Assembly: GCA_903861205.1 (NCBI GenBank) | Contig: CAIOTC010000018.1 | Location: 11,800-75,799, forward strand | Length of the DNA: 64,000 bases | Reading direction: 5' to 3' | From: an uncultured bacterium | Lineage (GTDB): Bacteria; Patescibacteriota; Minisyncoccia; Phycocordibacterales; DATDWN01 | Part shown: piece after piece, positions 35,361 to 62,928 of the stretch | Layout of the letters: each line of letters starts with the position of its first letter | How positions within the stretch are numbered: position 1 is the first letter of the stretch | Program-made: the position numbers and the translations under genes | Notes under the pieces: generated by a model | What the model was told of the DNA's origin: nothing | The model's database searches: none | The model's input: only the letters and a program-made list of their open reading frames with translations

Positions 35361-35379
35361 TGAAAATTGTTCGCCGAGC

Positions 35380-35638: not shown

Positions 35639-35647
35639 GAAATTTTC

Positions 35648-38842: not shown

Positions 38843-38848
38843 CGGGCG

Positions 38849-46871: not shown

Positions 46872-46922
46872 TTGATTTGAGAATAAAGATTCAAGAGACA
46901 AGATTCAAGAATAAAACAAATC

Positions 46923-46948
46923 AAAACACCGCCAAGGCGGTGTTTTGA
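46923..46948. terminator. Bidirectional rho-independent terminator (caaaacaccgcc-aa-ggcggtgttttg)
   Basis: It is a perfect 12-bp stem flanked by A/T runs and lies between convergent gatB and the HTH gene. Confidence 0.6.
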
Positions 46949-46981
46949 TTATTCCTGAATCATACATCTTGAATCATGATT

Positions 46982-47224: not shown

Positions 47225-47569
47225 ATTTTTAGTTTATTACATTAATAATGATTACTAAAGCTATATAAATAATGATACTAACAATGGTAATGTATATCAA
47301 GCTATGGATAATAAAAACTGTGGATAAGTGGTAAAAGAAGGGGGATACAAAATAATTTAAAATTTAGAATTTAAAATTTAAAATGAATTTTAAATTATTT
47401 AATTTGAAAATTATAAATTCAATAAAAATTAAAAATTTTAAATTGAAAATTTCACCATTTTGACCTCGTATAATCGCTTTAAACGAGACTTTTTTGTAAA
47501 AGTGATCTAATGGCTGTGTGAATGGGTGAAAAGTTGATGGGGACTTGACAGGAATTTGAAGAATTTTTA

Positions 47570-47612
47570 GACACTCGGTGATCACGTTGCTACGCCGTGG
47601 ACACCGAGTGTC
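47570..47612. repeat. Palindromic element family P3, intergenic copy
   Basis: gacactcggtgatcacgttgctacgccgtggacaccgagtgtc. Confidence 0.55.
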
Positions 47613-47686
47613 TTACATGCGAGTGCAAGTTTAGCCAGACTAATCTTAGCTTATTTTCCAAAATCTCGGATTGAAGAAAAAACTTT

Positions 47687-47735
47687 CCGAGGACTGACCT
47701 CCGGTGCCCAATTTTTTGAGGTCAGACCTCCGAAA
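47687..47735. repeat. Palindromic element family P5 (ccgaggactgacctcc…gaggtcagacctcc), intergenic copy
   Basis: ccgaggactgacctccggtgcccaattttttgaggtcagacctccg. A second copy lies at 48125-48175 in frame in the giant ORF, where it is translated as PRTDLQCPISRGQTSG. Confidence 0.55.
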
Positions 47736-47858
47736 TTTTTTGTGAAAAATGATCCGAGAATTTGAGAAAGTCCAAAATCTCTGATTGCCGAGAAAGCCTT
47801 ATTTATCCACAGTTTTTTGCTGTAATTACACTCTGCGAACATATATAATATAGAGGTA

Positions 47859-50800
47859 ATGAGTTCCGATTTATTCTTTCAAAATAAAAAATATATTTCC
47901 GCTAAAGAAGCGGCGGAACTAACTTCGTATTCCAGAGATTACATCGGACAACTTTGCCGCGATAAAAAAATTGATTCGAAAAGAATCGGACACACTTGGT
48001 ACGTTTGCGAGGAATCAATTTTAAATTATAAAAACACTCCTACTGATTTTGATTTTGCGAAGAATTTTAAAGGTGCGCTCACACCGGGTGTTGGGGATCA
48101 AACACCCGGTGAGAGCTCCACAAATTTGTTCCCGAGGACTGACCTCCAATGCCCAATTTCCCGAGGTCAGACCTCCGGAACAAAATTTGTCAAATCGACA
48201 CACAAAATTCTTTTTGCAAAGAATTTTCACTTCTCGAAAGTTTTTGCTTCTGTTGCGGCAATTGTCATTTTCTTCCTTGGGACGATTTCATTGGCGCAAG
48301 GTTTTGCGAATCTTGTTCCGATGACTTCAAAATTTGCCGGCGATGTTTCGAAAATTTCTCTTTCACAAATTGCAAAGTCCGCGCAAAATATTTCAGATGA
48401 AATTTCCGCAGCGCCGGAAAATTCTTACAACGCGCTAAAAGATATTGCAGTTTTTTATTCATCGGAGTTTACCGATGGTCTGATCAATTTTGGAAATAAA
48501 ATTCAAAACGCCACTTTTGCATTTTTGAATCAAACGAAAAAATTGGCCAAAAATCCCCCGCTTTACATCGTCCAATCTTTGACCGGGCTAGCCGGTGGCG
48601 AAACAAAAATTGTCGACAGTGGAATTTCCATTTCCGGCAACGCCATCGCCACGGCGCACGAAAAAACTTTTGCTTTTATTTCCGACTCGATTGGCGGTTT
48701 ACCTTTTGTTGCGAACTACACCACCTCGACAACAAAAAATATGACTTCGTCGGTGGCGATGGCGGTGCAAGAAAAAGCATTGACGCCGGTTGATCATGCC
48801 GGCATTTCGATTTATGACTCGGTCAACAATTTCTTCCGAACGAATTTGTATTCTCCGCTCCTAGCATTTCTCGGTAAAAGTCCGAACATTGTGGTGCCGG
48901 AGAAAAAGTCGGCAGGACCGATGATTGCGAAAAATCAGGGTGTGCTCACACCAAAGTCAGATTTGTCCACACCTGGTGATAACGTTGCTTCGCCGTTGAC
49001 ACCAGGTGAGTACAAATCTGCGGGCATAACCAGCGCGGAGCTTGATTTGCGTTTACAGGAACTCGACAACAAAATCGCGGCCAAGTTTGCCCAACTTTCG
49101 ACTGGCAACGGCGGAAGCGTGCAAAATATTTACAACATGATTGCTCAGAGCCAAGTCGGCGCGGGCGTCTCGAACGGCGGATCGGCCAGCTCGGCAACGG
49201 TAGCCAACGGACTTGTGGCCGGCACGGACATCAGCGTCAACTCCATCACGGTTACCGGCTCGGCCACATCGACATTCGCCGGCGGAATTGCGATTAGCGG
49301 CGGCTGTATTTCGGTGAACGGCGTTTGCCTCGGTTCCGGTTCCGGCAACACAACTGGCGGTTTGGCCGGACAATTTCCGTATTACCAAAATGACGGTTCG
49401 ACACTTTATGCAACTTCATCAATCTTTATCACCCCGAACGGAAATGTCGGCATTGGCACGACGACGCCCGCCAAAAAATTCTCGGTTGACGGCGATGTCA
49501 TTGTTAGCGGAAATATTTTCACCACGCTTTTCAATGCCATCAGCTTGAGCGCGACGAATGCCACGACATCAAACTTCGCCATTACCAACATCAAATCATC
49601 TCTCCTCAAAACAAACGCCGACGGCACGGTTGTCGCCGCGATTGCCGGCACCGACTACGAATCCAGCACAACGGTCAATTCGCTGATCAACGCTTCGACC
49701 ACCATCGCCAAACTTTACACCAACAACAATTTCACCGGACTGCAAACATTCAACTACTCATCCTCCACCATTTACTCATCGTTTGTCACCGCCTCGACCA
49801 CCAATCTTTTGGCCGGTACCATCTCACTCAACGGCACAGATTTGCAAACGACACTCAACGGCAAGCAATCCACCATCTCCGCTAACTGGCCGTTCACACT
49901 CACCGGCAGCACACTTGGTTGGAATGGTCTTTCCACTTCATCGGCCGCCACCATCGGCAACATTCCGTACTTCACCTCCGCAAACACATTCGGCAATGTT
50001 GGAACCACCACACCGACATTTAACCTCGGTCTGACAGCCGGAGGAACATGGTCTGTTCTCGGTTCCGCGCCGACACTTACCATCGCTACATCTTCTCTCT
50101 ACACCGGTACCACCGGACAATTCCCGTACTTCAGTGGGACAAACACCATCACTGCCACTTCGTCACTCTTCCTCGCGACGAGTGGGAATGTGGGCATTGG
50201 AACGGCGATTCCGGGCGTGAAATTGCAAGTTGTAGGACAATCAGGAACTGGAAACATAGGAGTGATAAATATCACCGGTTATGACTCGTTCGGTCAAAGT
50301 TTGGTTATGCAACTGCCAAGTACCGGATATACCGGTAATCTGATTGCATTGATGAAAGCCGCCGGTGGCTCAGGCCAGGCCATGGGTTTTTCAACTCATT
50401 TTACTTCCGACGCGGTTGACAGGTTTTCCATAATGAATCATCTTGGCGTTGAAAATCTTTCTGTTTTAGACAGCGGCAACGTTGGCATTGGCAGTACTTC
50501 TCCAACATACAAACTATCGGTCGAAGGAACATCATCTCTAGGCAATCAAGCCATCGCCGGATATTTCACCGCCACCTCGACCATGGCCACTTCCACATTC
50601 GCCGGCGGTCTCGACATCACCAAAGGTTTGCAACTGAACAGCGGCTACATTTTCGGCGCGGGACTTTCCTCTTGCAACGGCACTACGGCCAAACTTTTAT
50701 GGAACGCGACCACCGGCCAATTCGAGTGCGGCACTGATGCCGGCTCGTCCGGTCTCGGCATCTCATCGATCAACGGTCTGGCTGTCGGTGTGCAAAAATT

Positions 50801-53800
50801 AGCCACATCGTCCACTAACGGCGGCTGGGGATTTTTGTCATCGGTTGACACGCACACGCTCAACATTCCGACGGCCTCGGCGACAAATCCGCTCGGTTTA
50901 CTTTCGTCATCGGACTGGACAACGTTCAACAACAAGGACAGTTTCGCTTTTCCATTCATCGCCCAATCGTACGGAATGTCCACCACGTCAACTCTCGGTT
51001 TGCTCGGCGGATTTTTCACACCGGCTTCGGCCTCATCCACCATCGCCGGCACGTTCAACTTGCCGTCACTTTCAAACGGCGCGCTGGCCGTCTACAACGG
51101 ACTGGTCGGAAGCTATGCCACCACCACGGCCGGATCTTCTCTGACATATTCCGGCAATGCGTTTAATCTGAACATGGCCAACGCCAACTCGTGGACGGCC
51201 AACCAAACATTTGCATTCTCGTCGACCACGTATGCATCGCTGACCACCGCGTCGACAACCAATCTCACCATCGGCGGAAACACTTTCAACACACTTGTCG
51301 GCGCAGGACTGATCAACAACTCCGGCGCGCTTGGTCTGACCAACACTTCGCTTACAGTCAACGCCGGCACCGGACTTTCCGGCGGTGGCACAGTCGCTTT
51401 AGGCGGAACAATCACACTTTCAAATCAGCTGGCCACCTCGTCCGGCGAATCAGCGGGCAACTTGGCATACTGGACCACGACCAACGGAGTGCCGGCCAAA
51501 CTCGGCTCGGTGGCCACCACCACCCTGACTGCTTCCGGCGCGCTGTCACTCGACCACGCCATTTCCGTGCTTGGCTCGACACCATCGATCCTGACATGCG
51601 CCACCGCCAACTCCTCGACGTTCGGATGTTTAGCCGCCGCTGACTTCTCCAAATTTAATTCCGCCACCACTACTTTTGGCGGAGGATTGTCATATTCAAA
51701 CGCATCAAATCAAGCGACACTGAACATGGCCAATGCAAACACTTGGACAGCGTTGCAATCATTCAACTACTCATCGTCAACGATTTACTCATCATTCGTC
51801 ACAGCATCGACCACAAATCTTTTGGCCGGAACAATTTCACTGGGCGGCGCCGATTTGCAGACGACACTGAATTCGAAACTTGGCACATCCCTCGCCAAAG
51901 GAAAATTCCTCGTAGGCGATGATAATGGCGTGGCGCAGGCGACATCGACAATTTTCATTTCTTCGACAGGCAACGTGGGGATTGGGACAGCAGTACCGGG
52001 AGCGTTAGTTCACATATTGTCTTCTGCAACAAAAAATGTAAATGGCCAAGAAGTTTTGAGACTTTCAGGTACAGCTGCAGCTGACACTATTGGAAGCGGG
52101 CCCAAAATATTATTTACTCATTCCGACAACACAGTAACCGCATCGATTCGCTCTTATACTTTTGGGGCTAGTGATACTGGTCTGGCATTTAGCACTGGTT
52201 ATGGAGCTTTGACAGATAAGATGTTTATTAATAACGCGGGCTCCGTCGGCATCGGCTCGACATCTCCGACGTACAAACTCTCCGTCGAAGGAACATCATC
52301 TCTCGGCAATCAAGCCATCGCCGGATATTTCACTGCCACTTCTACCATGGCTACTTCGACATTCGCCGGCGGACTCGATATCACCAAAGGTTTGCAACTG
52401 AACTCCGGTTACATTTTTGGCGCGGGATTGGGAACATGCTCGTCTGTTACCGGAAAAATAACTTGGAATTCAGCAACCGGACAATTTGGTTGCGGGACTG
52501 ACGCGGGTTCGTCCGGTGTTGGCATCACCTCTCTCGGCGCGCAATATTCCATCGCTCAAACCAACGCTATCCAAACTCTGGCTACCTCGACATCGCTCGA
52601 CGCCAATCTCCGACTGACCATCACCTCGGCCGGCGACACGCACACATTCACACCGTCCTGGTTTGGCACGCTCGACGACAGTCGCATCACTTCGGCCGCC
52701 AATTGGAACACCGCGTACTCGAGCAGAATCACCTCCGCCTCACTGCCGCTTTCATTCTCCGGCAACGTTCTCTCAATCTCGCAAGCCAACGGCACGACCA
52801 ACGGCTACTTGTCCGCTGCTGACTTCTCCAAATTTAATTCTGCGACAACAACATTCGGCGGAGGATTGACATACACCGCGGGCACAAACCAAGCTACGCT
52901 GAATCTTGGAAATGCCAACACCTGGACTGCACTGCAATCTTTCAACTACTCCTCATCAACCATTTACTCGTCATTTGTCACAGCTTCGACCACCAATCTT
53001 TTGGCCGGCACCATTTCACTGGGCGGCACCGATTTGCAAACAACACTCAATGGCAAACAATCCACTATCTCTGCATCATGGCCGATTACACTAAACGGTG
53101 CGACAGTTGGCTTCAACGGACTCTCCACTTCCTCTGCAGCTGTCACCGGCAACATTCCATACTTCACCGGAGCGAACACATTCGGCAATGTGGCTACCAC
53201 TACACCAACATTCAATCTCGGACTGACAGCTGGAGGAACATGGTCTGTTCTAGGCTCCGCACCGACACTTTCCATCGCCACTTCTTCTCTCTACACCGGT
53301 ACTGCTGGACAATTCCCATATTTTAGTGACACCAACACCATCACCGCCACTTCATCGCTCTTCTTAGCGACGAGTGGGAATGTAGGCATCGGGACGGCAT
53401 CTCCTGTAACTCCTCTAGATATCTACAGAAACGGCAGTTACTACAATTATTTAAATCTCAGAAACGGGCAAATGAGTAATAACGTCGGCTTGCCTTCCGT
53501 AGACACTGTGTTCAGCGTTAGCCAAGAAACTCCAACATATGGGAAAGCGATAGTCACCGGAGTTTATTCAAATGGAGACAGCTACGCATTAAAATTGAAG
53601 GGAGTTAGCGGAGCAACCAGTTTGACCGCGGCCCCTCTTGTTTTGACCGGCGCAAAAAGAAATAGCAGCAGTCAAGTTAACGTTGCTGATACAGAACAGT
53701 TGTTGCAAGTACAAAAAAATGATGGCACTGCTTTGATGACTATGTTGGGTGGTGGAAATTTGGGCATTGGCACCACCTCGCCATCGTACAAATTGGATGT

Positions 53801-56800
53801 GATGGGTGGTATTGCTTCGTACGGTTCTTCGTTCTTTGGCGGAGCCATCACCGCCACATCGACACTGAACGTCAGCGGACTTGCGACATTCGCGTATTCC
53901 ACCACCACCTACGGATCTTTCACCACCGCTTCAACAACAAATTTTGTTTTGAACGGACAAACATTCAACAATCTTGTTGGTTCCGGTCTGTCGCTAAACA
54001 ACGGCGTGCTTTCCGCGACGGGTGGAGCCGGCAATGTTTCTACCTCATCAGGTGAGGTAATGGGACAACTTTCATACTGGACTACCACTAATGGCACCCC
54101 GGCAAAATTGGGAAGCGTCGCCACCACCACCTTGACCGCTTCCGGCGCGCTCTCACTCGATCACGCCATTTCCGTTCTCGGCGGAACTCCGGCGATCCTC
54201 ACATGCACCACGGCCAACGCCACCACTTTCGGTTGTTTGGCCGCCGCTGACTTCTCCCGCTTCAATTCCGCCACGACGACATTCAGCGGAGGACTATCCT
54301 ACACAGCCGGCACAAATCAAGCATCGCTTAACATGGCAAATGCAAATACATGGACAGTCAACCAATCTTTCAATTATTCCTCATCAACCATTTACTCGTC
54401 ATTTGTCACCGCCAGCACCACCAATCTTTTGGCTGGCACAATCTCACTCAATGGCACGGATTTGCAAACAACATTGAACTCAAAACTCGGAACGACACTG
54501 GCCAAAGGAAAATTCATTGTCGGTGATGACAACGGTGTGGCGCAGGCGACATCGACACTATATATATCATCCCTCGGCCAAATCGGCATCGGCGATACCT
54601 CGCCGTCCGCTTTACTTTCCGTTGGCACCACTACCAGCACCAACGCCGTTGGCGGAATGTATTTTGGCAAGGACACCACGGCGAATTTGTACAGGAGTGG
54701 AGCGGGATGGTTGAAGACTGATGGAAATTTGGAAGTGGCCGGCGGAACAGGTTTGAAAATCAGCAGTGGAGCTTTAAATATGAATGGTGGCGCAATTAGT
54801 AGTATCAGACAATTAGTTGGAGCTACAACTGATGATGGAACAGGTGTAATTAATTTCTCTAATGCAAATCTTACATCCGCTCAATATATTAACCTTACCC
54901 AAAATACTTCCGCTTTTACCGGCGACGGTTTGAAGTTTAATTTCGCTGCAGGCTCCGGTTCCTTCACCGGCAACTTTGCTGAGTTCCAAAATAACAGCGT
55001 AACAAAGTTTGTTGTCAAATCAGATGGTTCAACCGGCATCGGCTCATCCACTCCCGGTTCGCTCCTCTCCATTGGTGGCAATGGCACAGGTTGGAATTTC
55101 TTTGACAACGGCACGACGACCAGCTACGCAAAAGGAATTGATCTGAAAAACGGCGGTTGCTTCGCTGTCAACGGCACGTGCTTGTCGAGTGGCGGATTGT
55201 CGGCGGCCATCACTTCGCTCAACGGACTAACCGGCGCGATCCAAACATTCGCCACCACATCGATCGCCGGCGGTTGGGGCTGGAGCTCGGTTGGCACCAC
55301 ACACACACTCAACATTCCGACGGCTTCGGCCACCAACCCACTCGGCCTGCTTTCCGGCGCGGACTTCACCACCTTCTCCAACAAGCTCGGCAACACGCTG
55401 GCCAAAGGTAATTTCTTTGTCGGCTCGGATGGCAATGTGGCGCAAGCGACAAGTTCCATTTTCATTTCATCGACCGGCTCGATCGGCATCGGCACGCAAA
55501 ATCCATCATCGCTTCTGTCGATCCTCGGCACCACCGGCGGACCGTCACTTTTCAACGTCGCCTCCACATCGGGCAATTCCATTTTCAGCATTCTCAATAA
55601 CGGCTCGATCGGCATCGGCACATCATCACCGCTCGCCACGCTGGACATTCAAAATAATCCGACCAGTTTCCAAAATTTGCTGAACTTCTCAAACTCCTCC
55701 GGCACATCGCTCATGAATGTCGGCTGGTACGGCGACTTGACCCAAAATATTTCCTCGACCTCGGCGGTCAATATCCAGGACGGCGCGGGCAACTCGGTCT
55801 TCTCGATCGACACCACGCAGTCGTCGTCCAACGCCGGTCTCGACATCACCGCGGGTGGCGCGCAGTCGGGTAATTTGCTGAACGTCTACTCGTCCGGCGG
55901 CGACTTGCTCTCCGGCATCACCTCCGAGGGCGGCTGGTTCTCCAACATCGGCTCGACCAACGCGCTGTCCCTGCAAAACGGCAGTGGCTTGCCGGCCTTC
56001 ACATTTGACACCATCGGCAACCAGCTGACCGTCGGCTCGTCGACCGTGCCGACCACTTCGCTTCTCAATGTCATTGCCGTCGACCAATCGACTGATTTGT
56101 TTGACATCGCGTCAACCTCAGGCACGACATCATATTTGCACGTGACCAACACCGGCCAAACCGGCATTGGTACCAGCACCATAAACGGCACATCGCTTGC
56201 TTCCACTTTGACCGTGGCCGGTGACGCCAACTTCCCGACATATCCGCTTTTGACCATCGCCTCGTCCACCGGCACAAATCTGTTGACACTGGGTGTCAAC
56301 GGATATCTGGGACTTGGCTCGACCACTCCGGGCTCGCTGTTGTCGGTGGGTGGCGATGCAGTGGGCATCAACTTCTCGCTCGCGACAACGACGTACTCGA
56401 CCACCGGTGGAATTAACCTAACCAAAGGTGGTTGCTTTGCGGTCAACGGCACATGCCTATCTGGTGGAGGAATTTCCGGATTGACCGGTTCAACATTGGC
56501 TAAAGGCAGTTTCCTCGTTGGCGGCGACAACAATCAATCGCAGGCGACATCGACACTATATATATCATCCCTCGGACAAATCGGCATCGGATCAACCACT
56601 CCATGGGGTCTCCTCTCCGTCAACGCCAACGCTCTCACCTCCGACACACCGCAATTCGTTGTCGGCTCATCGACCGCCACCAACTTCATCGTGGCGAATA
56701 ATGGCAACGTCGGCATCGGGACAACGAGTCCACAGGCAACCTTGAATGTTTGGGGAACTTCCGGAACAAATCCGTTTTTGGTTTCTTCATCAACGGGAAG

Positions 56801-59800
56801 TGGGCTGATGGTTGTTCAACAGAACGGCAATGTCGGGATTGGGACGACGGGGCCCAATGCTGACTTGGATATATCTAATGCTAATCTGACACAAACAATC
56901 AGGCTGGGTTATTCGGGAACTCCGGCGGGACAGTATGCGCAATTTCAATTTAATAAAGCCTCGGATAATAGTTTAAATATTCTCACAAATTATTCCGGAG
57001 GTACAAATAATGTAATAACGTTCTCTCCAGGCGGAACCGAAAAGGTGCGATTTCAACAGAACGGCAACGTCGGCATCGGGACGACGACTGTGGGTAGTAG
57101 ATTAGTCGTGCAAGGTTCGGGAGCTACATCAGCTACGACAGCTTTAACGGTACAGAACAGTGCGGGAAGTGTGGCAATGTCAATATTAAATAACGGCAAC
57201 GTCGGCATCGGGACGACGAGTCCGAGTCAGTTGTTGACTGTGGGGAATAATAATCAGTTTACGGTTTCTTCAGTCGGAGCACTGGTGTCTCAAACGGCAA
57301 CAATTGGAGCAACGGCTGTGGTGCCTGTTGTGGTGAGTGGTACCGGAATATTCGGTGGCGCTTCTCCTAATGGGACATACAGTTATATTGGTAAGGATGG
57401 CTTTGGTGCAAATGAGTATCAATTTGGTACTTGGTATATATGGTGGGATAATGCGGTGCCTTGCTGGATTATTAATCATAGCCTTGGAACATGGAGTTCA
57501 AACGGGTTTTATAGTAGCGGAGGTTCAGGAACACCGCCATATGGTTTGGCCTGGAACAATGGGTCGTCAGGAACTGTGACTACTGCCGCTGGAGTGGCAA
57601 GTAATTTGACGGTAGATGGAGGTGGCAGCATTATTACCGGTGGTACTTTAAGTGTAAATGGAACAGGGAATAGTTATATACTCGGCAACGTCGGCATCGG
57701 GACAACGAGTCCACAGGCAACCTTGAATGTTTGGGGAACTTCCGGAACAAATCCGTTTTTGGTTTCTTCATCAACGGGAAGTGGGCTGATGGTTGTTCAA
57801 CAGAACGGCAATGTCGGCATCGGCACCACCACTCCAACCAACAAACTGACCATCACCGACACGGCCAATCCGCAGTTGACCCTGTCGGCTGACGCGGGTG
57901 TCTCGCAATGGGCCTTCCGCAACGCCGGTGGGAATTTGTATTTTGCCACGACCACGGTGGCGGGAACAGCGACAACATCGACTTCTGCGCTCTCCATTTT
58001 TAACAACGGCAACGTCAGCATTGGCAATTCCGCCACAGCCAACACTCTGACGGTTGGTGGCGGTTCGAACCTTGCCAGTATCAGCAACACCGCCACTTCC
58101 ACATTCTCACACAGCATCAGCTTGTCTGACGGATGTTTTGCCATCGGTAACACTTGCATCGGCTCGTCAAACGGCTCGGGCACGGTTGGTGTGGGAACGC
58201 AGGGTTATGTTCCGTTCTACAACACCGCCACCGATGTTCTCCAGGCCACATCGACACTATATATAGCGCAGTCTGGCTACGTCGGCATCGGCGGAGTGAC
58301 CAGTCCGACAAATCCGCTGGACGTCAGAGTCGGTGGCAGTGTTGCTTCGCCGAAACTGATTTCCTTTGACTTACTCGGTTCGGTCGAGCGCATCAAGACA
58401 ACATCGACCGCTTTGGATTTGCCAAACTTTATATATCTCGACTCGTCATCCGGCGACGCCACTTTGTCCAACACGGCCAACACCCAGAGCCAGATATTGC
58501 TCGGCGCTAATACCACTGTCGAAGGTCAGGGCAGTTTGTACCTCGACACATTCTCCGGCGGTGGCGGCAGCATTTTCTTCCGACCGCTCGGCACGCAGAA
58601 AATGGTTTTGACCAGTGATGGCAAACTGGGCGTGAATACCACAGCTCCGGCAGGGAATTTGCAAGTCAACGATGGCGCGAACGCTTTCCTGGTCAACGCC
58701 TCCGGCCAAGTCGGCATCGGCACGACCACACTGACATCGAAACTTTCCGTCGAGGGTAGCGTGACCTCATCGGGCGCCAGCGCGGTGGCGGGATTGTTCG
58801 CTTCGTCAACATTGAGCAACTCGAATGGTAGCGGATTCCAGTTCGGCAACAGGCTGATCAACAACGTCATCGGTGGAACGGCCGGGACCGAGGACGGGTT
58901 GTTCGTGCGCATGATCGATTCGTCCAGCGCAGCCAACACGGTGCGTGGTCTCGAAGTTCAGGCTTACTCGGGCAACAACACGGCCGGCGTCAACACCGGT
59001 ATCGCCACCTACGGCAAGACATTCGGTTTGCAAGCTTACACCACCGCGCTGGCCGGCGGAGTGTCGCAACCGGCGGCGGTGTTTGCGCAACTCGACAACG
59101 GCGGCGCACCGACCATCGGCAATGCTATTCGCGCATATTCCAACTCGCTGACATCGGCCACGCTGGTCAGTTTGTACCACGAGACATCGGCCTTCACCGG
59201 CACAGGTTTGGCCATGAACTTCGGCAACAACTCCGGCAGCTTCAGCGGTAACTTCCTCGATTTGCAAAACGCGGGTGTGAGCAAGTTCCGAGTCAACAGT
59301 GTTGGCCAAACGATAATCGGTTCTGCCGGTTCGTTCAACAGCTCGATGCTCGATGTCGCTTCGTCGACCGCCACCTCGAACGTCGACATGTTCCGCATCA
59401 TCTCCGACGTCGGTGGCGCGGCCAACGTCAAATTCCGCATCGACTCCGACGGAGATGTCTTCACTGACGGTGGCACGACAATCGGCTCACCGGCCGACAT
59501 CGCCGAGAATTATCCGGTCGCCGAGGACGGCCTCGAAGCCGGCGACGTGGTGGCATTGTCAACATCAACAAGGGTCCCCCTTGTGGATTCTGGATTACAA
59601 GGGGGACCCTTGTTGGGAGATTCTGCAACCACCACCATCTCCGGTCTTGTCAAAGCTTCTCGCACCGAGCGCAACATTCTCGGTATCGTCTCAACCAAGC
59701 CAGGCGTTCTGCTTTCCGGCAACACCGAAAATGCCGTGCCTGTCGCGTTGGCCGGACGCGTGCCAGTCAAAGTGTCTGACGAAAACGGCGCCATTGTGGT

Positions 59801-60992
59801 CGGTGACTACTTGACCGTTTCGAAACTGCATCCGGGCTACGCCGCCAAAGCGCTGTACTCCGGCACCGTCATCGGCCAGGCGTTGGAGAGCACACCTGGT
59901 GTCAACGGCGAAGCAACGTTATCACCGGGTGTTAGCTCGAACCCAAACCCAGCCACTTCAACCATCCTCGCCTTCGTTCACGTCGGCTGGCAAAACGTCG
60001 ACAACCAATTCGTTCTCGGCGATAATGGCGACCAATTGACCGGCGATGTCGGCGACGGTGCGCCAAAAGATGCGGCTGACGGCGGATTCCTGATCAACCA
60101 AAAAGGCAGCGGTTCGATCTTGCAACTGCAATCGAACGACCAAAACCGATTCATGGTGGCGACATCCGGCGCAGTGACGATTTTGGCTGACACTTCGTGC
60201 GATGTTGGCGGAGAACTCTCACCTGGTGTCAACGGCGCAGCAACGTTATCACCGGGTGTGAGTTCGAACTCTTGCGCCAATCTCTTCACCGTCAAAAATA
60301 ATTCGAACGAAATCTTTAGCGTCAACGTTCGCGGAGATGTCGCGATCAAAGGCGTCTTGGTTGCTACCGACGATAGCTTTGCCGGATCGATTGCCACCAA
60401 AGCCGACGGTACCGCTGACATCGACTTCTCGTACAACCTCGGCACAGGCAAACCGGTCGTCGAGTTGACACCGGAGAGCGACTCGCCGGTCTTCGCGCAA
60501 GTCATGTCGTGGAAGAAAGACAGCGACGGCAACTACACCGGACTGGTCGTCAAAACATTTGGCTTGAGCGGCACAGCAATTTCCTCAACCGTGCACTACG
60601 TGGTGGTGGGGAAGAAAAGCGGCTACTCCACCAACGGAACAGTCATGAATGTGATGTCCTCACCGGGTGTCGGCGGCGCAGGAGCCGGAGGTGTTTCCTC
60701 GGGTAGCGAAGCGGACGGAGGTGACTCCTCGGGCGTACCGAGTGTGAGTTCAAACCCTGCTTCAACTACCCCTGACACTTCCGCCACAACCACGCCCGCA
60801 ACCGGAGAACTCTCACCTGGTGGAGCCGGAGGTGTTTCCTCGGGTGCCGACAGCCAGTCGGACACCGGAGGTGACTCCTCGGGCGCACCCGTTTCCACTC
60901 CCACCACCCCCGACACCCAACCAACCGCCTCCGCTTCAGTTGACATTCCAGCCTCAGTCCCAGCTTCCGTCGACACAAATCAAACACAATAA
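47859..60992 (+). CDS. Giant (4377 aa) cell-surface repetitive protein with an N-terminal HTH_17-like segment, a single TM helix, a huge Gly/Ser/Thr/Ala-rich repeat region (tail-fibre-like NVGIGTT/S-P repeats) and a C-terminal S74-like intramolecular-chaperone-like segment
   Basis: It is one uninterrupted 13.1-kb ORF. The first 55 aa resemble an excisionase/MerR HTH (ISAKEAAELTSYSRDYIGQLCRDKKIDSKRIGHTWYV), and a TM helix follows at about aa 130-150. The remainder consists of reiterated ~150-aa modules (…TWTALQSFNYSSSTIYSSFVTASTTNLLAGTISL(N/G)GTDLQTTLN… and …GNVGIGTTSP…). The C-terminus (…GGTTIGSPADIAENYPVAEDGLEAGDVVAL…ILGIVSTKPGVLLSG…) resembles tail-spike/fibre chaperone domains. GC is ~55%, against ~30-45% elsewhere. 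The exact start and domain homologies are uncertain. Confidence 0.6.
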   Translation: MSSDLFFQNKKYISAKEAAELTSYSRDYIGQLCRDKKIDSKRIGHTWYVCEESILNYKNTPTDFDFAKNFKGALTPGVGDQTPGESSTNLFPRTDLQCPISRGQTSGTKFVKSTHKILFAKNFHFSKVFASVAAIVIFFLGTISLAQGFANLVPMTSKFAGDVSKISLSQIAKSAQNISDEISAAPENSYNALKDIAVFYSSEFTDGLINFGNKIQNATFAFLNQTKKLAKNPPLYIVQSLTGLAGGETKIVDSGISISGNAIATAHEKTFAFISDSIGGLPFVANYTTSTTKNMTSSVAMAVQEKALTPVDHAGISIYDSVNNFFRTNLYSPLLAFLGKSPNIVVPEKKSAGPMIAKNQGVLTPKSDLSTPGDNVASPLTPGEYKSAGITSAELDLRLQELDNKIAAKFAQLSTGNGGSVQNIYNMIAQSQVGAGVSNGGSASSATVANGLVAGTDISVNSITVTGSATSTFAGGIAISGGCISVNGVCLGSGSGNTTGGLAGQFPYYQNDGSTLYATSSIFITPNGNVGIGTTTPAKKFSVDGDVIVSGNIFTTLFNAISLSATNATTSNFAITNIKSSLLKTNADGTVVAAIAGTDYESSTTVNSLINASTTIAKLYTNNNFTGLQTFNYSSSTIYSSFVTASTTNLLAGTISLNGTDLQTTLNGKQSTISANWPFTLTGSTLGWNGLSTSSAATIGNIPYFTSANTFGNVGTTTPTFNLGLTAGGTWSVLGSAPTLTIATSSLYTGTTGQFPYFSGTNTITATSSLFLATSGNVGIGTAIPGVKLQVVGQSGTGNIGVINITGYDSFGQSLVMQLPSTGYTGNLIALMKAAGGSGQAMGFSTHFTSDAVDRFSIMNHLGVENLSVLDSGNVGIGSTSPTYKLSVEGTSSLGNQAIAGYFTATSTMATSTFAGGLDITKGLQLNSGYIFGAGLSSCNGTTAKLLWNATTGQFECGTDAGSSGLGISSINGLAVGVQKLATSSTNGGWGFLSSVDTHTLNIPTASATNPLGLLSSSDWTTFNNKDSFAFPFIAQSYGMSTTSTLGLLGGFFTPASASSTIAGTFNLPSLSNGALAVYNGLVGSYATTTAGSSLTYSGNAFNLNMANANSWTANQTFAFSSTTYASLTTASTTNLTIGGNTFNTLVGAGLINNSGALGLTNTSLTVNAGTGLSGGGTVALGGTITLSNQLATSSGESAGNLAYWTTTNGVPAKLGSVATTTLTASGALSLDHAISVLGSTPSILTCATANSSTFGCLAAADFSKFNSATTTFGGGLSYSNASNQATLNMANANTWTALQSFNYSSSTIYSSFVTASTTNLLAGTISLGGADLQTTLNSKLGTSLAKGKFLVGDDNGVAQATSTIFISSTGNVGIGTAVPGALVHILSSATKNVNGQEVLRLSGTAAADTIGSGPKILFTHSDNTVTASIRSYTFGASDTGLAFSTGYGALTDKMFINNAGSVGIGSTSPTYKLSVEGTSSLGNQAIAGYFTATSTMATSTFAGGLDITKGLQLNSGYIFGAGLGTCSSVTGKITWNSATGQFGCGTDAGSSGVGITSLGAQYSIAQTNAIQTLATSTSLDANLRLTITSAGDTHTFTPSWFGTLDDSRITSAANWNTAYSSRITSASLPLSFSGNVLSISQANGTTNGYLSAADFSKFNSATTTFGGGLTYTAGTNQATLNLGNANTWTALQSFNYSSSTIYSSFVTASTTNLLAGTISLGGTDLQTTLNGKQSTISASWPITLNGATVGFNGLSTSSAAVTGNIPYFTGANTFGNVATTTPTFNLGLTAGGTWSVLGSAPTLSIATSSLYTGTAGQFPYFSDTNTITATSSLFLATSGNVGIGTASPVTPLDIYRNGSYYNYLNLRNGQMSNNVGLPSVDTVFSVSQETPTYGKAIVTGVYSNGDSYALKLKGVSGATSLTAAPLVLTGAKRNSSSQVNVADTEQLLQVQKNDGTALMTMLGGGNLGIGTTSPSYKLDVMGGIASYGSSFFGGAITATSTLNVSGLATFAYSTTTYGSFTTASTTNFVLNGQTFNNLVGSGLSLNNGVLSATGGAGNVSTSSGEVMGQLSYWTTTNGTPAKLGSVATTTLTASGALSLDHAISVLGGTPAILTCTTANATTFGCLAAADFSRFNSATTTFSGGLSYTAGTNQASLNMANANTWTVNQSFNYSSSTIYSSFVTASTTNLLAGTISLNGTDLQTTLNSKLGTTLAKGKFIVGDDNGVAQATSTLYISSLGQIGIGDTSPSALLSVGTTTSTNAVGGMYFGKDTTANLYRSGAGWLKTDGNLEVAGGTGLKISSGALNMNGGAISSIRQLVGATTDDGTGVINFSNANLTSAQYINLTQNTSAFTGDGLKFNFAAGSGSFTGNFAEFQNNSVTKFVVKSDGSTGIGSSTPGSLLSIGGNGTGWNFFDNGTTTSYAKGIDLKNGGCFAVNGTCLSSGGLSAAITSLNGLTGAIQTFATTSIAGGWGWSSVGTTHTLNIPTASATNPLGLLSGADFTTFSNKLGNTLAKGNFFVGSDGNVAQATSSIFISSTGSIGIGTQNPSSLLSILGTTGGPSLFNVASTSGNSIFSILNNGSIGIGTSSPLATLDIQNNPTSFQNLLNFSNSSGTSLMNVGWYGDLTQNISSTSAVNIQDGAGNSVFSIDTTQSSSNAGLDITAGGAQSGNLLNVYSSGGDLLSGITSEGGWFSNIGSTNALSLQNGSGLPAFTFDTIGNQLTVGSSTVPTTSLLNVIAVDQSTDLFDIASTSGTTSYLHVTNTGQTGIGTSTINGTSLASTLTVAGDANFPTYPLLTIASSTGTNLLTLGVNGYLGLGSTTPGSLLSVGGDAVGINFSLATTTYSTTGGINLTKGGCFAVNGTCLSGGGISGLTGSTLAKGSFLVGGDNNQSQATSTLYISSLGQIGIGSTTPWGLLSVNANALTSDTPQFVVGSSTATNFIVANNGNVGIGTTSPQATLNVWGTSGTNPFLVSSSTGSGLMVVQQNGNVGIGTTGPNADLDISNANLTQTIRLGYSGTPAGQYAQFQFNKASDNSLNILTNYSGGTNNVITFSPGGTEKVRFQQNGNVGIGTTTVGSRLVVQGSGATSATTALTVQNSAGSVAMSILNNGNVGIGTTSPSQLLTVGNNNQFTVSSVGALVSQTATIGATAVVPVVVSGTGIFGGASPNGTYSYIGKDGFGANEYQFGTWYIWWDNAVPCWIINHSLGTWSSNGFYSSGGSGTPPYGLAWNNGSSGTVTTAAGVASNLTVDGGGSIITGGTLSVNGTGNSYILGNVGIGTTSPQATLNVWGTSGTNPFLVSSSTGSGLMVVQQNGNVGIGTTTPTNKLTITDTANPQLTLSADAGVSQWAFRNAGGNLYFATTTVAGTATTSTSALSIFNNGNVSIGNSATANTLTVGGGSNLASISNTATSTFSHSISLSDGCFAIGNTCIGSSNGSGTVGVGTQGYVPFYNTATDVLQATSTLYIAQSGYVGIGGVTSPTNPLDVRVGGSVASPKLISFDLLGSVERIKTTSTALDLPNFIYLDSSSGDATLSNTANTQSQILLGANTTVEGQGSLYLDTFSGGGGSIFFRPLGTQKMVLTSDGKLGVNTTAPAGNLQVNDGANAFLVNASGQVGIGTTTLTSKLSVEGSVTSSGASAVAGLFASSTLSNSNGSGFQFGNRLINNVIGGTAGTEDGLFVRMIDSSSAANTVRGLEVQAYSGNNTAGVNTGIATYGKTFGLQAYTTALAGGVSQPAAVFAQLDNGGAPTIGNAIRAYSNSLTSATLVSLYHETSAFTGTGLAMNFGNNSGSFSGNFLDLQNAGVSKFRVNSVGQTIIGSAGSFNSSMLDVASSTATSNVDMFRIISDVGGAANVKFRIDSDGDVFTDGGTTIGSPADIAENYPVAEDGLEAGDVVALSTSTRVPLVDSGLQGGPLLGDSATTTISGLVKASRTERNILGIVSTKPGVLLSGNTENAVPVALAGRVPVKVSDENGAIVVGDYLTVSKLHPGYAAKALYSGTVIGQALESTPGVNGEATLSPGVSSNPNPATSTILAFVHVGWQNVDNQFVLGDNGDQLTGDVGDGAPKDAADGGFLINQKGSGSILQLQSNDQNRFMVATSGAVTILADTSCDVGGELSPGVNGAATLSPGVSSNSCANLFTVKNNSNEIFSVNVRGDVAIKGVLVATDDSFAGSIATKADGTADIDFSYNLGTGKPVVELTPESDSPVFAQVMSWKKDSDGNYTGLVVKTFGLSGTAISSTVHYVVVGKKSGYSTNGTVMNVMSSPGVGGAGAGGVSSGSEADGGDSSGVPSVSSNPASTTPDTSATTTPATGELSPGGAGGVSSGADSQSDTGGDSSGAPVSTPTTPDTQPTASASVDIPASVPASVDTNQTQ
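48968..49010. repeat. Palindromic element family P3, in-frame copy in the giant ORF (forward orientation)
   Basis: The sequence ccacacctggtgataacgttgcttcgccgttgacaccaggtgag is translated as STPGDNVASPLTPGE. Confidence 0.6.
59569..59615. repeat. Palindromic element family P2 variant (aagggtccccctt…aagggggaccctt), in frame in the giant ORF
   Basis: It is translated as RVPLVDSGLQGGPLL. Compare the P2 copy inside RAYT-2, which is translated as RVPLLGSDSEKGAPFL. Confidence 0.55.
59891..59934. repeat. Palindromic element family P3, reverse-orientation in-frame copy
   Basis: The sequence cacacctggtgtcaacggcgaagcaacgttatcaccgggtgt is translated as TPGVNGEATLSPGV. Confidence 0.55.
60217..60262. repeat. 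Palindromic element family P3, reverse-orientation in-frame copy
   Basis: The sequence ctctcacctggtgtcaacggcgcagcaacgttatcaccgggtgtgag is the exact reverse complement of the gatB copy apart from a few substitutions. Confidence 0.6.
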
Positions 60993-61003
60993 TTTTAAAA
61001 AAC

Positions 61004-61666
61004 ATGAAAAATCGCGACTATAAAGAGTTTGCAGAAGGTGAGTATTATCACATTTTTAACCGCGGTGTCGGCAAGATGGATATTTTTTTGGATGACCAAG
61101 ACTACCTAAACTTTCTCAAGCGCCTGAAAATCGTTCTGAACTTGACTCCAAAAAGGGTGCCCCTTTTGGGTTCGGATTCAGAAAAAGGGGCACCCTTTTT
61201 GCACCTGTCTCCGTTGCCTGAAAATTCCTTTGAAATCATCTGTTATTGTCTGATGCCTAACCACTTCCATTTTATTATTAAACAACTCGGCGACATTTCA
61301 ATAAGCGATTTGATTTCAAAAATCTGCATTAGTTACTCAATGTATTTCAATAAAAAAAATGATCGAGTTGGTTCCTTGTATCAAGATCAGTTCAAAGCCA
61401 TCAACATTGCTACCGACCAGTATCTCCTCTGGCTTTCCGCCTACATCCACCAAAATCCGCATGTGGCCGGGTTGGTCAAAAATTTGGCGGACTGGAAATG
61501 GTCCAGCTACCCCGACTACATCGGCGCGCGGCAGGGAACTTTGTGCAAAAAGGACGTGGTGCTAGAGCGATTCAAAAACGCGCGCGAGTACGCCGACTTT
61601 GTGGATAGCGGTTTTGATATAATAAAAAATAAGGCGGAGTTGAAAGATTTATTGTTGGATTTTTAA
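61004..61666 (+). CDS. Second RAYT / IS200-like Y1 transposase paralog
   Basis: It has the GEYYHIFNRG N-terminus, the HuH motif PNHFHFII and the Tyr region YIHQNPHVAGL. It contains an in-frame P2 palindrome at 61150-61200. Confidence 0.65.
   Translation: MKNRDYKEFAEGEYYHIFNRGVGKMDIFLDDQDYLNFLKRLKIVLNLTPKRVPLLGSDSEKGAPFLHLSPLPENSFEIICYCLMPNHFHFIIKQLGDISISDLISKICISYSMYFNKKNDRVGSLYQDQFKAINIATDQYLLWLSAYIHQNPHVAGLVKNLADWKWSSYPDYIGARQGTLCKKDVVLERFKNAREYADFVDSGFDIIKNKAELKDLLLDF
61150..61200. repeat. Palindromic element family P2 (aaaaagggtgcccctttt…aaaaaggggcacccttttt) in frame inside RAYT-2
   Basis: The inverted repeat is read directly from the sequence. It encodes KRVPLLGSDSEKGAPFL between the RAYT N-terminal motif and the HuH motif. 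Confidence 0.6.
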
Positions 61667-61704
61667 AACGATGAAAATGCTCACATTTTTTCAAAAAAAA
61701 ACAT

Positions 61705-61725
61705 CAGAGAGGGACACCCTCTCTG
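61705..61725. repeat. P2-family palindrome (cagagagggacaccctctctg) 3' of RAYT-2
   Basis: It is a perfect palindrome apart from the central base. Confidence 0.55.
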
Positions 61726-61940
61726 CGGCTCATTTGTTTTTCTTGGCCAAAATAATCAAGAGAATAAAAGCGATGGCGAGCAACGCTCCGAGGATATAGA
61801 TGTTTATCATAGAATTGTAAATAGGGGACATAATAATTATGACTTGGTTAATATTAAAATAATAATACAGCGAGTATGAATATTTTGTCAACGAAAATCA
61901 AGAAGTTGTGGATAGGTTCGGTGTGTTAAAATGAAAAGAA

Positions 61941-62165
61941 ATGTTCAAAATTTTTAGAAAAACAAATATCGGAGAGGGAGAGGGTGCCCCTCTCAACCCA
62001 AAAAGGAGAGGGGCACCCTCTCTGTGGTCCAAAGGTTACATTAAAACCAAGAAAATAATTACCATCGCCGTTATTCTAGTCCTCATTGCCACCTCGATTA
62101 TTGTTCTGCCGTTGCTCACCCAGGCGTCGTGGTTTGGGGCGGGCAAGGCGGGTGTGTTAAAATAA
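61941..62165 (+). pseudogene. Truncated duplicate of the 5' end (signal-anchor region) of the LamG/DUF2341-like gene at 62929
   Basis: …KGYIKTKKIITIAVILVLIATSIIVLPLLTQASWFGAGKAGVLK* aligns with MSQRGFVKTKKVITVAVLTVLVAASIVILPTLTQASWFSNGKGTW… of the downstream gene. The 5' part (GEGEGAPLNPKRRGAPSL) is encoded by a P2 palindrome at 61971-62024. Confidence 0.35.
61971..62024. repeat. P2-family palindromic element pair (agagggtgcccctct…agaggggcaccctct)
   Basis: The inverted repeat is read directly from the sequence. Confidence 0.55.
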
Positions 62166-62169
62166 AAAC

Positions 62170-62646
62170 ATGCTTGAATTTACAAATAAACAATTTGAGG
62201 AAGTAAAAATTAAAAGTGAAGCTTTTTACAAAAATATCGGTGAGATTTATTGTCCATATTTAAAAGAAAAAGTTTCTTTTAATACCAAAGGCCTTGAACA
62301 TCTAAGATTTAAACATAGATGGAAATCTCGTCCTGAAAAAGACCAATACATGAGATTAAAACTCATTCATCTTGCTCCGGAAGTTTTAAAATTATCACAT
62401 ACAGTGCAGGGTATTTTAGAAACCAAAAAATTTGAGAGAATAAGAATGAAAGCTAGGACAGACACAATTTTGAAACCGGTCACTTATTTTGAATTCATCT
62501 CAGTTTTAAAGAGAAACAGAGTTAGAATTGTTGTAAAGCAAATTGAAAATGGTCAAAAATTTTTCTGGAGCATTATTCCATTCTGGAAAATGAATAGAGA
62601 AACAATGACAAGGATATTGCACGATGGCGATCCGGAGGAGGATTAA
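62170..62646 (+). CDS. Hypothetical protein (158 aa) in a low-GC insert
   Basis: The ORF is clean, and its ~32% GC contrasts with flanking DNA. I recognise no domain. It sits between a duplicated gene fragment and its full-length paralog. Confidence 0.35.
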   Translation: MLEFTNKQFEEVKIKSEAFYKNIGEIYCPYLKEKVSFNTKGLEHLRFKHRWKSRPEKDQYMRLKLIHLAPEVLKLSHTVQGILETKKFERIRMKARTDTILKPVTYFEFISVLKRNRVRIVVKQIENGQKFFWSIIPFWKMNRETMTRILHDGDPEED

Positions 62647-62808
62647 ACAACAAAAAATCCGCCAAAACAGCGGGTCCTTTGTTAGCGTTTGGCTACAGCG
62701 TATATAGCCGTGAGAGGGCGAACCCTTCCAAACGCCACAACCAGTATATCACCCCCAAATGAAAAGTCAATGAAAAACCAACTGACAAAAAAGAATAAAA
62801 AAATTAGA

Positions 62809-62925
62809 TCTCACCGAGTGTCATCTGCGAAGCAAAGGGTCACTCGGTGTGAGCTAATTTTTCCAATCAGAACTCATGAACCACACTCGGTGACTGCGTT
62901 ACTGCGTCGCCGACACCAAGTGAGC
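62809..62925. repeat. Two tandem P3-family palindromic elements (tcaccgagtgtcatctgcgaagcaaagggtcactcggtgtgag and cacactcggtgactgcgttactgcgtcgccgacaccaagtgag)
   Basis: The copies lie at 62809-62854 and 62881-62925. They are read directly from the sequence, immediately upstream of the ATG at 62929. Confidence 0.5.
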
Positions 62926-62928
62926 TTC

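Follow-up and report, generated by a model that had tools for sequence, protein, structure and literature searches.

Short hairpin-forming repeats, probably mobile and of the REP/RPE kind, in frame in genes of a Patescibacteria genome

We analysed a 64-kb stretch of DNA from an uncultured member of the Patescibacteria (contig CAIOTC010000018.1, positions 11,800 to 75,799; hereafter the window) and found in it a family of palindromic repeats, P3, most of whose copies lie in frame within protein-coding genes. P3 elements are probably short, non-autonomous, hairpin-forming mobile repeats of the kind represented by repetitive extragenic palindromes (REPs) and Rickettsia palindromic elements (RPEs), native to one Paceibacteria-type lineage; we regard them as a known kind of element in a new phylum. 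An earlier note on this DNA had proposed that a palindrome has spread at the DNA level among several sites and that proteins tolerate it in frame, and this proposal is supported by gaps in homologous proteins, by the sites occupied in sister genomes, and by the position of one copy in a coil of GatB. The DNA of the source genome that we examined is the window itself; its relatives are represented by metagenomic fragments, which we refer to as numbered loci (L002, L003 and so on), and gene boundaries are based on open reading frames (ORFs).

P3 elements were located with a covariance model (R1), built from ten copies in the window and its relatives and scanned over the window with filters off. 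Exactly eight elements were found in the 64 kb: the seven window copies used for training, and a short-loop variant at 48079-48114 that lay outside the training set and was recovered at E = 9e-6. Beyond these eight, no match in the window fell below E = 0.6. A repeat finder likewise grouped P3 copies in both orientations, and the 39-nt core recurs with at most two mismatches at 48970, 59893 (minus strand) and 60220 (minus strand), where the expected number is 0. The arm motif CACYNRGTG is present 19 times in the window, compared to 1.47 +/- 1.42 in shuffled sequences; 18 of the 19 lie between 45.9 and 62.9 kb, and there are none in the first 45 kb. Three arms stand alone, at 46024, 60661 and 60814. 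In the P3 core (39-45 nt), which is GC-rich and conserved, the two arms pair over 9 bp and are followed, past a 2-nt internal loop, by a 4-bp inner stem that closes a 9-nt loop; the start of one arm is 30 nt from the start of the other, and an AT-rich outer stem extends the full hairpin to about 60 nt. The arms are of two types. A-type arms (CACCNGGTG) are self-palindromic and are found in the gatB and giant-ORF copies, whereas in B-type copies, which are found at 47570, at 62809-62925 and in L003, CACTCGGTG is paired with CACCGAGTG. Five of the eight window copies are certainly within ORFs and two more probably are; the hosts are gatB (one copy), a giant ORF (four) and a DUF2341 gene or its leader (two), and the remaining copy is in a leader. 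The copies, with one of the solo arms, are:

45967-46011, plus strand: P3 with A-type arms CACCNGGTG, in frame in gatB, peptide STPGCNVAAPLTPGE
46024-46032: solo arm CACCGAGTG, after the gatB P3 copy
47569-47613, plus strand: P3 with B-type arms CACTCGGTG/CACCGAGTG, non-coding, preceding the giant ORF start by about 250 nt
48079-48114, plus strand: short-loop variant of P3, in frame in the N-terminal linker of the giant ORF, peptide LTPGVGDQTPGE
48967-49011, plus strand: P3 in frame in the giant ORF, peptide STPGDNVASPLTPGE, outer stem GATTTGT/ACAAATC
59890-59934, minus strand: P3 in frame in the giant ORF, peptide STPGVNGEATLSPGV, cleanly inserted with respect to 10 homologues
60217-60261, minus strand: P3 in frame in the giant ORF, peptide LSPGVNGAATLSPGV, cleanly inserted with respect to 10 homologues
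62809-62852, minus strand: P3 with B-type arms, in the ORF open from ATG 62770 (N-terminal tail of the DUF2341 protein, or 5' untranslated region), would read HRVSSAKQRVTR
62881-62925, plus strand: P3 with B-type arms, in the same ORF from 62770, reading HSVTALLRRRHQV

Comparison with homologous proteins indicates that several of these are insertions. GatB is 523 residues long in this genome, compared to about 474 in most relatives. The P3 segment fills a loop in which the nearest orthologues (71% identity) have four residues, and in an AlphaFold model residues 224-245 form a coil with a predicted local distance difference test score (pLDDT) below 50, between strands at 210-220 and 251-257. 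When the C-terminal 517 residues of the giant protein were searched against 1.8 billion representative proteins there were many homologues, whose alignments break at the P3 positions, and a multiple alignment of this domain has clean gaps at both reverse-orientation copies in 10 of 10 homologues. As judged from these alignments, three of the window copies (one in GatB, two in the giant ORF) are clean lineage-specific insertions. A peptide such as STPGCNVAAPLTPGEK exemplifies the sequence spanning the inserts in GatB and the giant protein. At the 48079 and 48967 copies the L003 homologue (32% identity) has no clean gap. An ORF upstream of a transposase gene in L090 (the counterpart of gene 1 below) was considered as a near-sister empty site and was set aside, being only 24% identical and not orthologous in that domain.

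Among the relatives' loci, P3 is restricted to the window, L002 and L003. L002 has a GatB of 71% identity and keeps the gatB-MerR gene order, and it lacks the insert seen in the window; its own P3 copy (PAPGDRVATPLTPGE) is at a different GatB site, one that is empty in both the window and L004. L003 has two B-type copies at two further GatB sites. On this comparative evidence, P3 is shown to have entered different sites in independent events and in either orientation, among them loops and linkers of an essential enzyme, GatB, and of the giant protein, a surface protein. The phenomenon seems to be widespread in the phylum: in a survey of 71 gatB loci, lineage-specific insertions in other Patescibacteria were often unrelated GC-rich palindromes with strongly negative folding z-scores (for example, z = -7.6 for the insert in L021), and gatB of L003 also has a P7-like insert (see below). 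The palindromic in-frame GatB inserts are:

L012: residues 246-255
L014: residues 27-36 and 139-165
L021: residues 219-238
L003: residues 130-139

Inserts of the CCGCCAAGGGCGGATCCGCCTCTGGCGG type form one family that is found at two different sites in two genomes, L012 and L014.

Every P3 copy folds into one long hairpin, with z-scores from -3.3 to -7.8 (DNA parameters). Across the ten copies, 91% of stem cells are in standard pairs, compared to 80% after shuffling and 29-42% with slid partners. Both sides have changed, in a compensatory manner, in 7 of 14 stem pairs, and only 1 of 139 cells is a G-U pair. Since pairing is maintained on both strands through compensatory changes, and G-T is nearly absent, the pattern points to a constraint on DNA, which would fit the stems better than one acting on RNA only. 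The outer stems behave differently from the cores: they are AT-rich, vary in sequence from copy to copy, and are complementary within each copy. Each copy's own flanks have on average 7.5 Watson-Crick matches in 13 positions, compared to 4.0 +/- 2.0 when flanks are cross-paired between unrelated copies. For example, the gatB copy has a copy-specific outer stem GGATTTTT/AAAAATCC, which lengthens its hairpin to 45958-46020 and differs from that of the 48967 copy by one compensatory change (T-A to G-C), and the outer stem of the 62881-62925 copy (TCATGAA/TTCATGA) takes in an alternative start codon at 62929. In the L002 copy, the outer stem on the left consists of conserved host sequence (codons for SKNL), and on the right the flank departs from the empty site so as to increase pairing; the corresponding empty site in L004 is already an imperfect palindrome (AAATCT..AGAATTT). 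Outer stems could have arisen by insertion into pre-existing AT-rich inverted repeats, by extension of a hairpin through template switching, or by an insertion chemistry that duplicates the flank in inverted form. GAACTCT repeats at the 60217 copy were tried as a target-site duplication and rejected, because they would imply a frame-breaking insertion of 53 nt; they are better read as part of a nested palindrome, GAGTTCGAACTC.

Two other palindrome families in the window, P5 and P7, appear to be the same kind of element as P3. P5 resembles P3 in its layout, its conserved core consisting of two self-palindromic arms and its flanks being complementary and specific to each copy:

47687-47732, plus strand: P5, non-coding, two self-palindromic arms GAGGWCWGACCTC and a 16-nt spacer
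48132-48177, plus strand: P5 in frame in the giant ORF, peptide PRTDLQCPISRGQTSG, own outer stem ACAAATTTGTTC/GAACAAAATTTGT

The two are about 41/46 identical (by eye). In the frame used by the genic copy the non-coding one has a TGA, a stop that is replaced in the genic copy (TTTTGA to TCCCGA). L020 and L030 also have P5-type arms (GAGGTCNGACCTC), L093 has a near-matching variant, and we found none in 599 kb of loci with more distant GatB proteins. Two places, 47569-47732 in the leader and 48079-48177 in the N-terminal linker of the giant ORF, have P3 and then P5 in matching order and orientation, with spacers of 76 nt and 20 nt respectively; neither the spacers nor the flanks are related. 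P3 and P5 may insert next to each other. P7-type palindromes and the low-complexity tail of the giant ORF are located as follows:

59568-59613, plus strand: P7-type palindrome in frame in the giant ORF, peptide TRVPLVDSGLQGGPLLG, with a loop like that of the copy inside transposase gene 1
61706-61724, plus strand: P7 half copy, 40 nt past the stop codon of transposase gene 1
61978-62022, plus strand: full P7 copy, in frame in a 74-aa ORF (61941-62165)
60655-60885, plus strand: low-complexity C-terminal tail of the giant ORF, with a tandem duplication of about 150 nt

The tail is made up of solo P3 arms (60661, 60814) and four P5-like arms, GGAGGTG(TT/AC)TCCTC (60687, 60717, 60828, 60867). We considered P7 as an instance of the TIRtron motif GGGGWSAS (PMC3733652), which is strictly unmatched, since GGGGCACC has C at the W position. 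Terminator-like hairpins that contain arm motifs of the repeat families are found at gene ends, at 1754-1792 of L002 (for example, CCCCAGGTCTGACCTGGGG flanked by A/T runs) and at 39553-39595 and 46919-46950 of the window, which suggests that some repeat copies double as terminators.

In forward orientation, A-type copies have stops in two of the three frames, so the TPG...PLTPGE frame is forced on them in genes. Read in reverse, they are open in all three frames, yet SPGVNG...LSPGV is the frame used by both reverse copies. Altogether, the 8 of 8 securely genic copies in the window and sister genomes are in the two Pro/Gly frames, out of four stop-free options; for these few and partly non-independent copies the probability of this choice is about 0.004 if all are independent, or 0.02-0.03 if they represent 5-6 independent events. 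This may reflect a modest degree of filtering at the peptide level, beyond the avoidance of stops. The coordinates given in the earlier note hold to within 1-3 nt for the eight copies found by the covariance model, the peptides read as it described them (TPG forward, SPGVNG reverse), and the dual location of P5 that it noticed is real. Its statement that both directions are stop-free is informative only in part, since it applies fully to the reverse orientation but to just one forward frame; all eight securely genic copies are in stop-free frames.

A second qualification concerns the copies that the earlier note placed between genes. The 47570 copy of P3 and the 47687 copy of P5 are truly non-coding, overlapping only ORFs of at most 73 aa, whereas 62809-62925 consists of two copies in opposite orientations within an ORF that is open from ATG 62770 through both of them and into the DUF2341 gene. 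This ATG and the preceding 170 nt share about 90% identity with L090, the protein of which likewise begins MK(D/N)QLTK, and on public contigs of the same strain the DUF2341 gene is called from 62770. To go by this reading frame, the two copies may not be intergenic; the alternative is a DUF2341 start at ATG 62929. If translated, they would read RSHRVSSAKQRVTRCE and HSVTALLRRRHQVS, which are Arg/His-rich and would form a cytoplasmic tail ahead of a membrane anchor; the stop found in this frame of A-type copies is missing from the 62881 copy. The linker-like character attributed to all copies by the note is thus true of the securely genic ones, whose translated frames give Pro/Gly/Ser/Thr-rich peptides, but would not extend to this pair. 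L090 has a different palindrome at the same N-terminal site of its DUF2341 gene. The 74-aa ORF at 61941-62165 contains an in-frame P7 followed by WSKGYIKTKKIITIAVIL...TQASWF, and is a truncated paralogue of the DUF2341 N-terminal membrane anchor, so that the anchor motif is preceded by palindromes in three cases (this ORF, 62770-62929, and the L090 DUF2341 gene).

The window contains two genes for Y1 transposases that resemble REP-associated tyrosine transposases (RAYTs), and both carry palindromes:

61004-61666, plus strand: RAYT-like Y1 transposase gene 1, with HUH and Tyr motifs and an in-frame P7 at 61150-61200
38867-39556, plus strand: RAYT-like Y1 transposase gene 2 (RAYT2), within a palindrome unit at 38825-39577

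Against Pfam Y1_Tnp, gene 1 scores 38 bits and RAYT2 16.9 bits, which is below the cutoff; the RAYT-like proteins have PNHFH and YIHxNP motifs. Gene 1 has 3,826 homologues at E <= 1e-10, whose named sources are Patescibacteria-type lineages and some of which were named RayT by the Joint Genome Institute (JGI). Each genome has at least two RAYT-like paralogues; L095 has three Y1_Tnp genes within 12 kb (987-1643, 1702-2364 and 7312-7950), two of them adjacent. Between its first conserved block and the HUH motif, gene 1 has a hypervariable segment, which in many homologues is a translated palindrome of the GGGTGCCCC...GGGGCACCC type (P7) and which is absent from the shortest homologues. Besides the P7 inside gene 1, the copies beside the gene are on its downstream side only. 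For the window, L090, L093/L094 and L095 alike, the internal palindrome matches the genome-specific type of the copies downstream or nearby, although in the window the copies inside and outside gene 1 have the core in common and differ in the outer stem. Since P7 is alike within a genome and different between genomes, it points to concerted change. The palindrome regions of the gene 1 type are:

L090: 1720-3233
L093: 8072-9368
L095: 1846-2403
window: 61004-62022

RAYT2 is surrounded by a different palindrome, (G)TCCCAGGTG[T/A]CACCTGGG(GC), of 17-21 nt, with one copy upstream (38825-38841), one inside the gene (39140-39156) and one downstream (39561-39577). The internal copy is in frame after the HUH motif and reads ISPRCHLG. 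Y1 genes flanked by palindromes in this manner are also present in L003, L004, L090, L093 and L095. RAYT2 is 74% identical to the L004 gene and has orthologues in the same obg-gatB neighbourhood in both L003 and L004, and gene 1 is syntenic in L090. By its layout, the RAYT2 unit is a REPtron-like arrangement. Its half-sites CCAGGTG/CACCTGG are the same heptamers as in the A-type arms of P3; the heptamer occurs 10 times in the window, compared to 1.9 expected, and 7 of the 10 occurrences are in P3 or RAYT2-palindrome elements. A 12-mer of the RAYT2 palindrome, CCAGGTGTCACC, matches reverse P3, CCTGGTGTCAAC, at 10 of 12 positions by eye (CCWGGTGTCAMC), and similarly in L003 the palindrome of the RAYT2-type gene, AACACTCCGTG, matches the P3 arm of the same genome, AACACTCGGTG, at 10 of 11.

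From this similarity between the P3 arm and the RAYT2 half-site, we infer that P3 would be a loop-expanded derivative of the RAYT2-associated palindrome, copied through recognition of the single-stranded hairpin by RAYT-like Y1 (HUH) transposases acting in trans. Because the genome is about 94% coding (an estimate from a greedy ORF map of the window), most insertions are bound to fall in genes, and the ones that survive there have a length divisible by three, keep to a stop-free frame and are in a disordered loop.

Several observations weigh against this reading. All eight copies are within 17 kb (45,967-62,925), with none in the other 46 kb of the window. The only NCBIfam match of gene 1, to REP_Tyr_transpos (REP-associated tyrosine transposase), scores 57.5 bits against a curated cutoff of 80; there is no P3 copy flanking either RAYT-like gene in the window, and the link between P3 and RAYT2 amounts to 7-12 nt of similarity. 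Neither a target-site duplication nor a conserved target was found at the P3 copies, and their complementary, copy-specific flanks are unexplained by simple cut-and-paste of a fixed unit. Searches for the P3 core (21 nt specified) in a genome contig collection gave one chance match, in a Nitrospira metagenome-assembled genome and without arms; the P3 pattern (22 nt specified) had no match in a metagenome contig collection, and viral contigs scanned for P3 and P5 gave one chance match and none, respectively. The comparison of presence and absence among sisters that the earlier note had called for gave differing GatB sites in L002 and L003, but no polymorphism within the strain: nine contigs from several other samples are 100% identical where aligned, apart from one probable assembly deletion (between the repeats at 56703 and 57684).

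One alternative dispenses with a transposase. Hairpins would arise and spread by template switching during replication (snap-back synthesis), together with local gene conversion among GC-rich palindromes, so that arms are corrected and adjacent host sequence is copied in inverted form, giving each copy its own outer stem. Template-switch mutagenesis (quasi-palindrome correction) is reportedly the subject of Ripley 1982 and of Loytynoja and Goldman 2017, and it would explain perfected stems and the growth of palindromes into their flanks. The complementary flanks of both P3 and P5, the compensatory changes with hardly any G-T pairs, the clustering within 17 kb, the lack of a detected target-site duplication, and the L002 copy, with SKNL codons as its left stem and a right flank changed towards pairing, all agree with it. 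However, the process is local and makes inverted copies in place; it does not carry a fixed core to new loci, and so leaves unaccounted for the near-identical 39-nt cores that occur in unrelated genes, in either orientation, at sites 11-14 kb from each other, and the related copies at different GatB sites in three genomes. The flank signal is also inflated by the A-run and T-run composition. We consider this explanation unlikely. We are doubtful, though somewhat less so, about a more far-reaching form of the transposition hypothesis, in which Patescibacteria harbour a distinct REP/RAYT-type system, with a palindrome inside the Y1 gene evolving in concert with dispersed copies, inverted and copy-specific duplication of flanks, made at insertion or by later growth of the hairpin in place of direct target-site duplication, and routine colonisation of essential and surface-protein genes in the form of translated loops.

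It is improbable that P3 and P5 are cis-elements of the host, either operators for the adjacent MerR and helix-turn-helix (HTH) proteins or RNA hairpins acting on transcript stability or translation, with the coding copies recruited or incidental. One P3 and one P5 are indeed in the giant ORF's leader, within a divergent intergenic region beside a MerR-family gene; the giant protein begins with an HTH_17 domain; two P3 copies precede the body of the DUF2341 gene; the arms are self-palindromic with 30-nt start-to-start spacing; and the second arm of P5 is followed by a T-run with a terminator-like score. Against this, there are clean insertions deep within coding sequence, the orientation relative to transcription is mixed, a hairpin scan upstream of the giant ORF of L003 found none, the DUF2341 site of L090 has a different palindrome, and neither Rfam at gathering thresholds nor ARAGORN reports anything in the P3/P5 region. 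A protein-level origin, with P3 as a Pro/Gly-rich linker module under protein selection that is copied by recombination, its DNA palindromy being secondary, would fit the P/G/S/T-rich peptides of the securely genic copies, all of them in loops or linkers, but a different peptide results in reverse orientation, one copy is non-coding, and compensatory stem changes alter the peptide. A word-indexed search of 5.8 billion proteins with concatenated P3 peptides gave 42 candidates and no scoring match, probably because the query is too short or too biased. We regard this origin as very improbable. Least credible of all is an artefact, whether a single segmental duplication (which the earlier note had named as the finding that would undo its proposal, were the copies also confined to the window) or a mis-assembly of repeats. 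The repeated P3-P5 order at 47569-47732 and 48079-48177 is what a duplication would leave, but the cores alone align while a 56-nt spacer and the flanks do not, and relatives have P3 at different GatB sites, which excludes a single segmental duplication. Mis-assembly is excluded by independent assemblies from several samples, which reproduce 52.0-64.0 kb, and the host ORFs are intact.

The gene order around the repeats is obg, gatB, the MerR-family gene, the giant ORF, the Y1_Tnp gene, a 158-aa ORF and the DUF2341/LamG gene, and the best homologues of GatB are all from Patescibacteria (Paceibacteria/Zambryskibacteria-like):

45300-46871: gatB
46982-47224, minus strand: MerR-family gene
47859-60992: giant ORF, 4,377 aa, with an N-terminal HTH_17 domain; its start aligns with the L003 homologue from residue 1
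61004-61666: Y1_Tnp gene (RAYT-like gene 1)
extending past the window end: DUF2341/LamG gene

The window has an overall G+C content of 40%, with a sharp contrast between positions 1-45000 (30-40%) and the giant ORF (48-58%); the GC-rich palindrome families all cluster in or near this GC-rich part. An AT-rich repeat family (CAATTTCCAATTT...) is also present, in frame in gatB at 45696-45747 (peptide GNFQFPISNFQSNPNESIL). This gatB insert is also present in a Zambryskibacteria GatB (P0004) and is in a segment with pLDDT < 50, and other copies build large inverted repeats in two intergenic regions, 35275-35770 and 47350-47450. Within the giant ORF there are 146-nt direct repeats (56703-56848 and 57684-57829, 97% identical), which contigs of the same strain from other samples join without the 848-981 nt between them; the missing stretch reflects either a collapse in assembly or a true deletion variant. 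A non-coding stretch at 62647-62770, separating the 158-aa ORF from the DUF2341 gene, is about 90% identical to 3818-3942 of L090, as conserved as the flanking coding DNA. It folds as a terminator-like hairpin plus a branched hairpin (RNA z = -2.9, plus strand), has no match in Rfam, and could be a small RNA or a leader.

Patescibacteria (also called the candidate phyla radiation, CPR) have some of the smallest and most gene-dense genomes known, commonly described as streamlined. With mobile hairpins persisting as translated loops in essential genes such as gatB, a phenomenon of Rickettsia would reach a second, unrelated lineage with reduced genomes, which suggests that it is the high coding density itself that drives such elements into proteins. 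Inserts of this kind inflate protein length, blur the alignment of orthologues and the calling of start codons (62770 or 62929, for example), and may account for part of the lineage-specific loop insertions in CPR proteins. Two features deserve follow-up, namely the cognate palindromes inside RAYT-like genes and the copy-specific outer stems; the RAYT-like genes that carry their own palindrome provide a testable handle on how the repeats move. If the doubtful proposal of a distinct REP/RAYT-type system were true, it would be an undescribed source of protein length variation in minimal genomes.

In the literature searched, neither elements of this kind nor RAYT-palindrome systems were found described for Patescibacteria. 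The closest parallels are in other phyla. RPEs (Ogata et al. 2000, 2002, summarised in PMC10969869) are, for the RPE-1 type, about 100-150 bp long, and palindromes inserted in frame in coding DNA are their hallmark (PMC10969869). P3 is similar to RPEs in being repeated palindromic DNA found in frame in unrelated, often essential genes as well as in non-coding DNA, in adding peptide segments that are compatible with the protein fold, and in belonging to a small gene-dense genome where several families coexist (PMC10969869). P3 lies in several unrelated genes and in non-coding DNA, its insertions keep the frame relative to orthologues, and the one in GatB is in a disordered segment. P3 is set apart from RPEs by its length (45-60 bp) and host (Patescibacteria rather than Alphaproteobacteria), and also by the nearby RAYT-like genes with cognate palindromes and by its copy-specific outer stems. 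[quoted passage not shown] P3 is similarly small and non-autonomous, and MITEs are occasionally intragenic, with in-frame fusions possible, but P3 is one continuous hairpin, with no target-site duplication detected and no parent IS.

REPs are imperfect palindromes of 20-40 nt, mostly extragenic, with a GTAG or CGTC tag (PMC3733652), in families of tens to hundreds of copies dispersed over the genome. REPs or REPINs with a RAYT make up REPtrons, and TIRtrons have TIRYT transposases (PMC3733652, PMC3116915, PMC5581495). P3, like REPs, is a short imperfect palindrome (slightly longer) that forms a stem-loop, belongs to a species-specific family and is sometimes arranged in inverted pairs (62809-62925). 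Unlike REPs, it ends in yCA-CACC...GGTG-AG, without GTAG or CGTC at either foot, and is mostly genic. The self-complementary arms of A-type P3, P5 and P7 are similar to some TIR repeats of TIRtrons. RAYT2 resembles a REPtron in being a Y1 HUH gene at a syntenic position, flanked by its own palindrome; the RAYT-like genes here have a vertical, syntenic position, though they are multi-copy paralogues. They differ from REPtrons in that the RAYT-like proteins are below the NCBIfam RAYT cutoff and P3 does not flank a RAYT gene, and in that palindromes are also in frame inside the RAYT-like genes; such an arrangement was not found described in the REP/RAYT literature examined, where REPs flank or overlap the gene ends. 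Intragenic REPs, as single units or dimers, are known from Opitutus terrae, Thauera, Xanthomonas and R. conorii, where they add about 20-30 residues at sites that differ between species (Di Nocera et al. 2013, PMC3733652). These are members of the GTAG/CGTC superfamilies and make up a minority of their families, whereas the detected P3 copies are mostly genic. The two are alike in that N-terminal copies may in fact be extragenic (PMC3733652), which is the same ambiguity as at 62770-62929.

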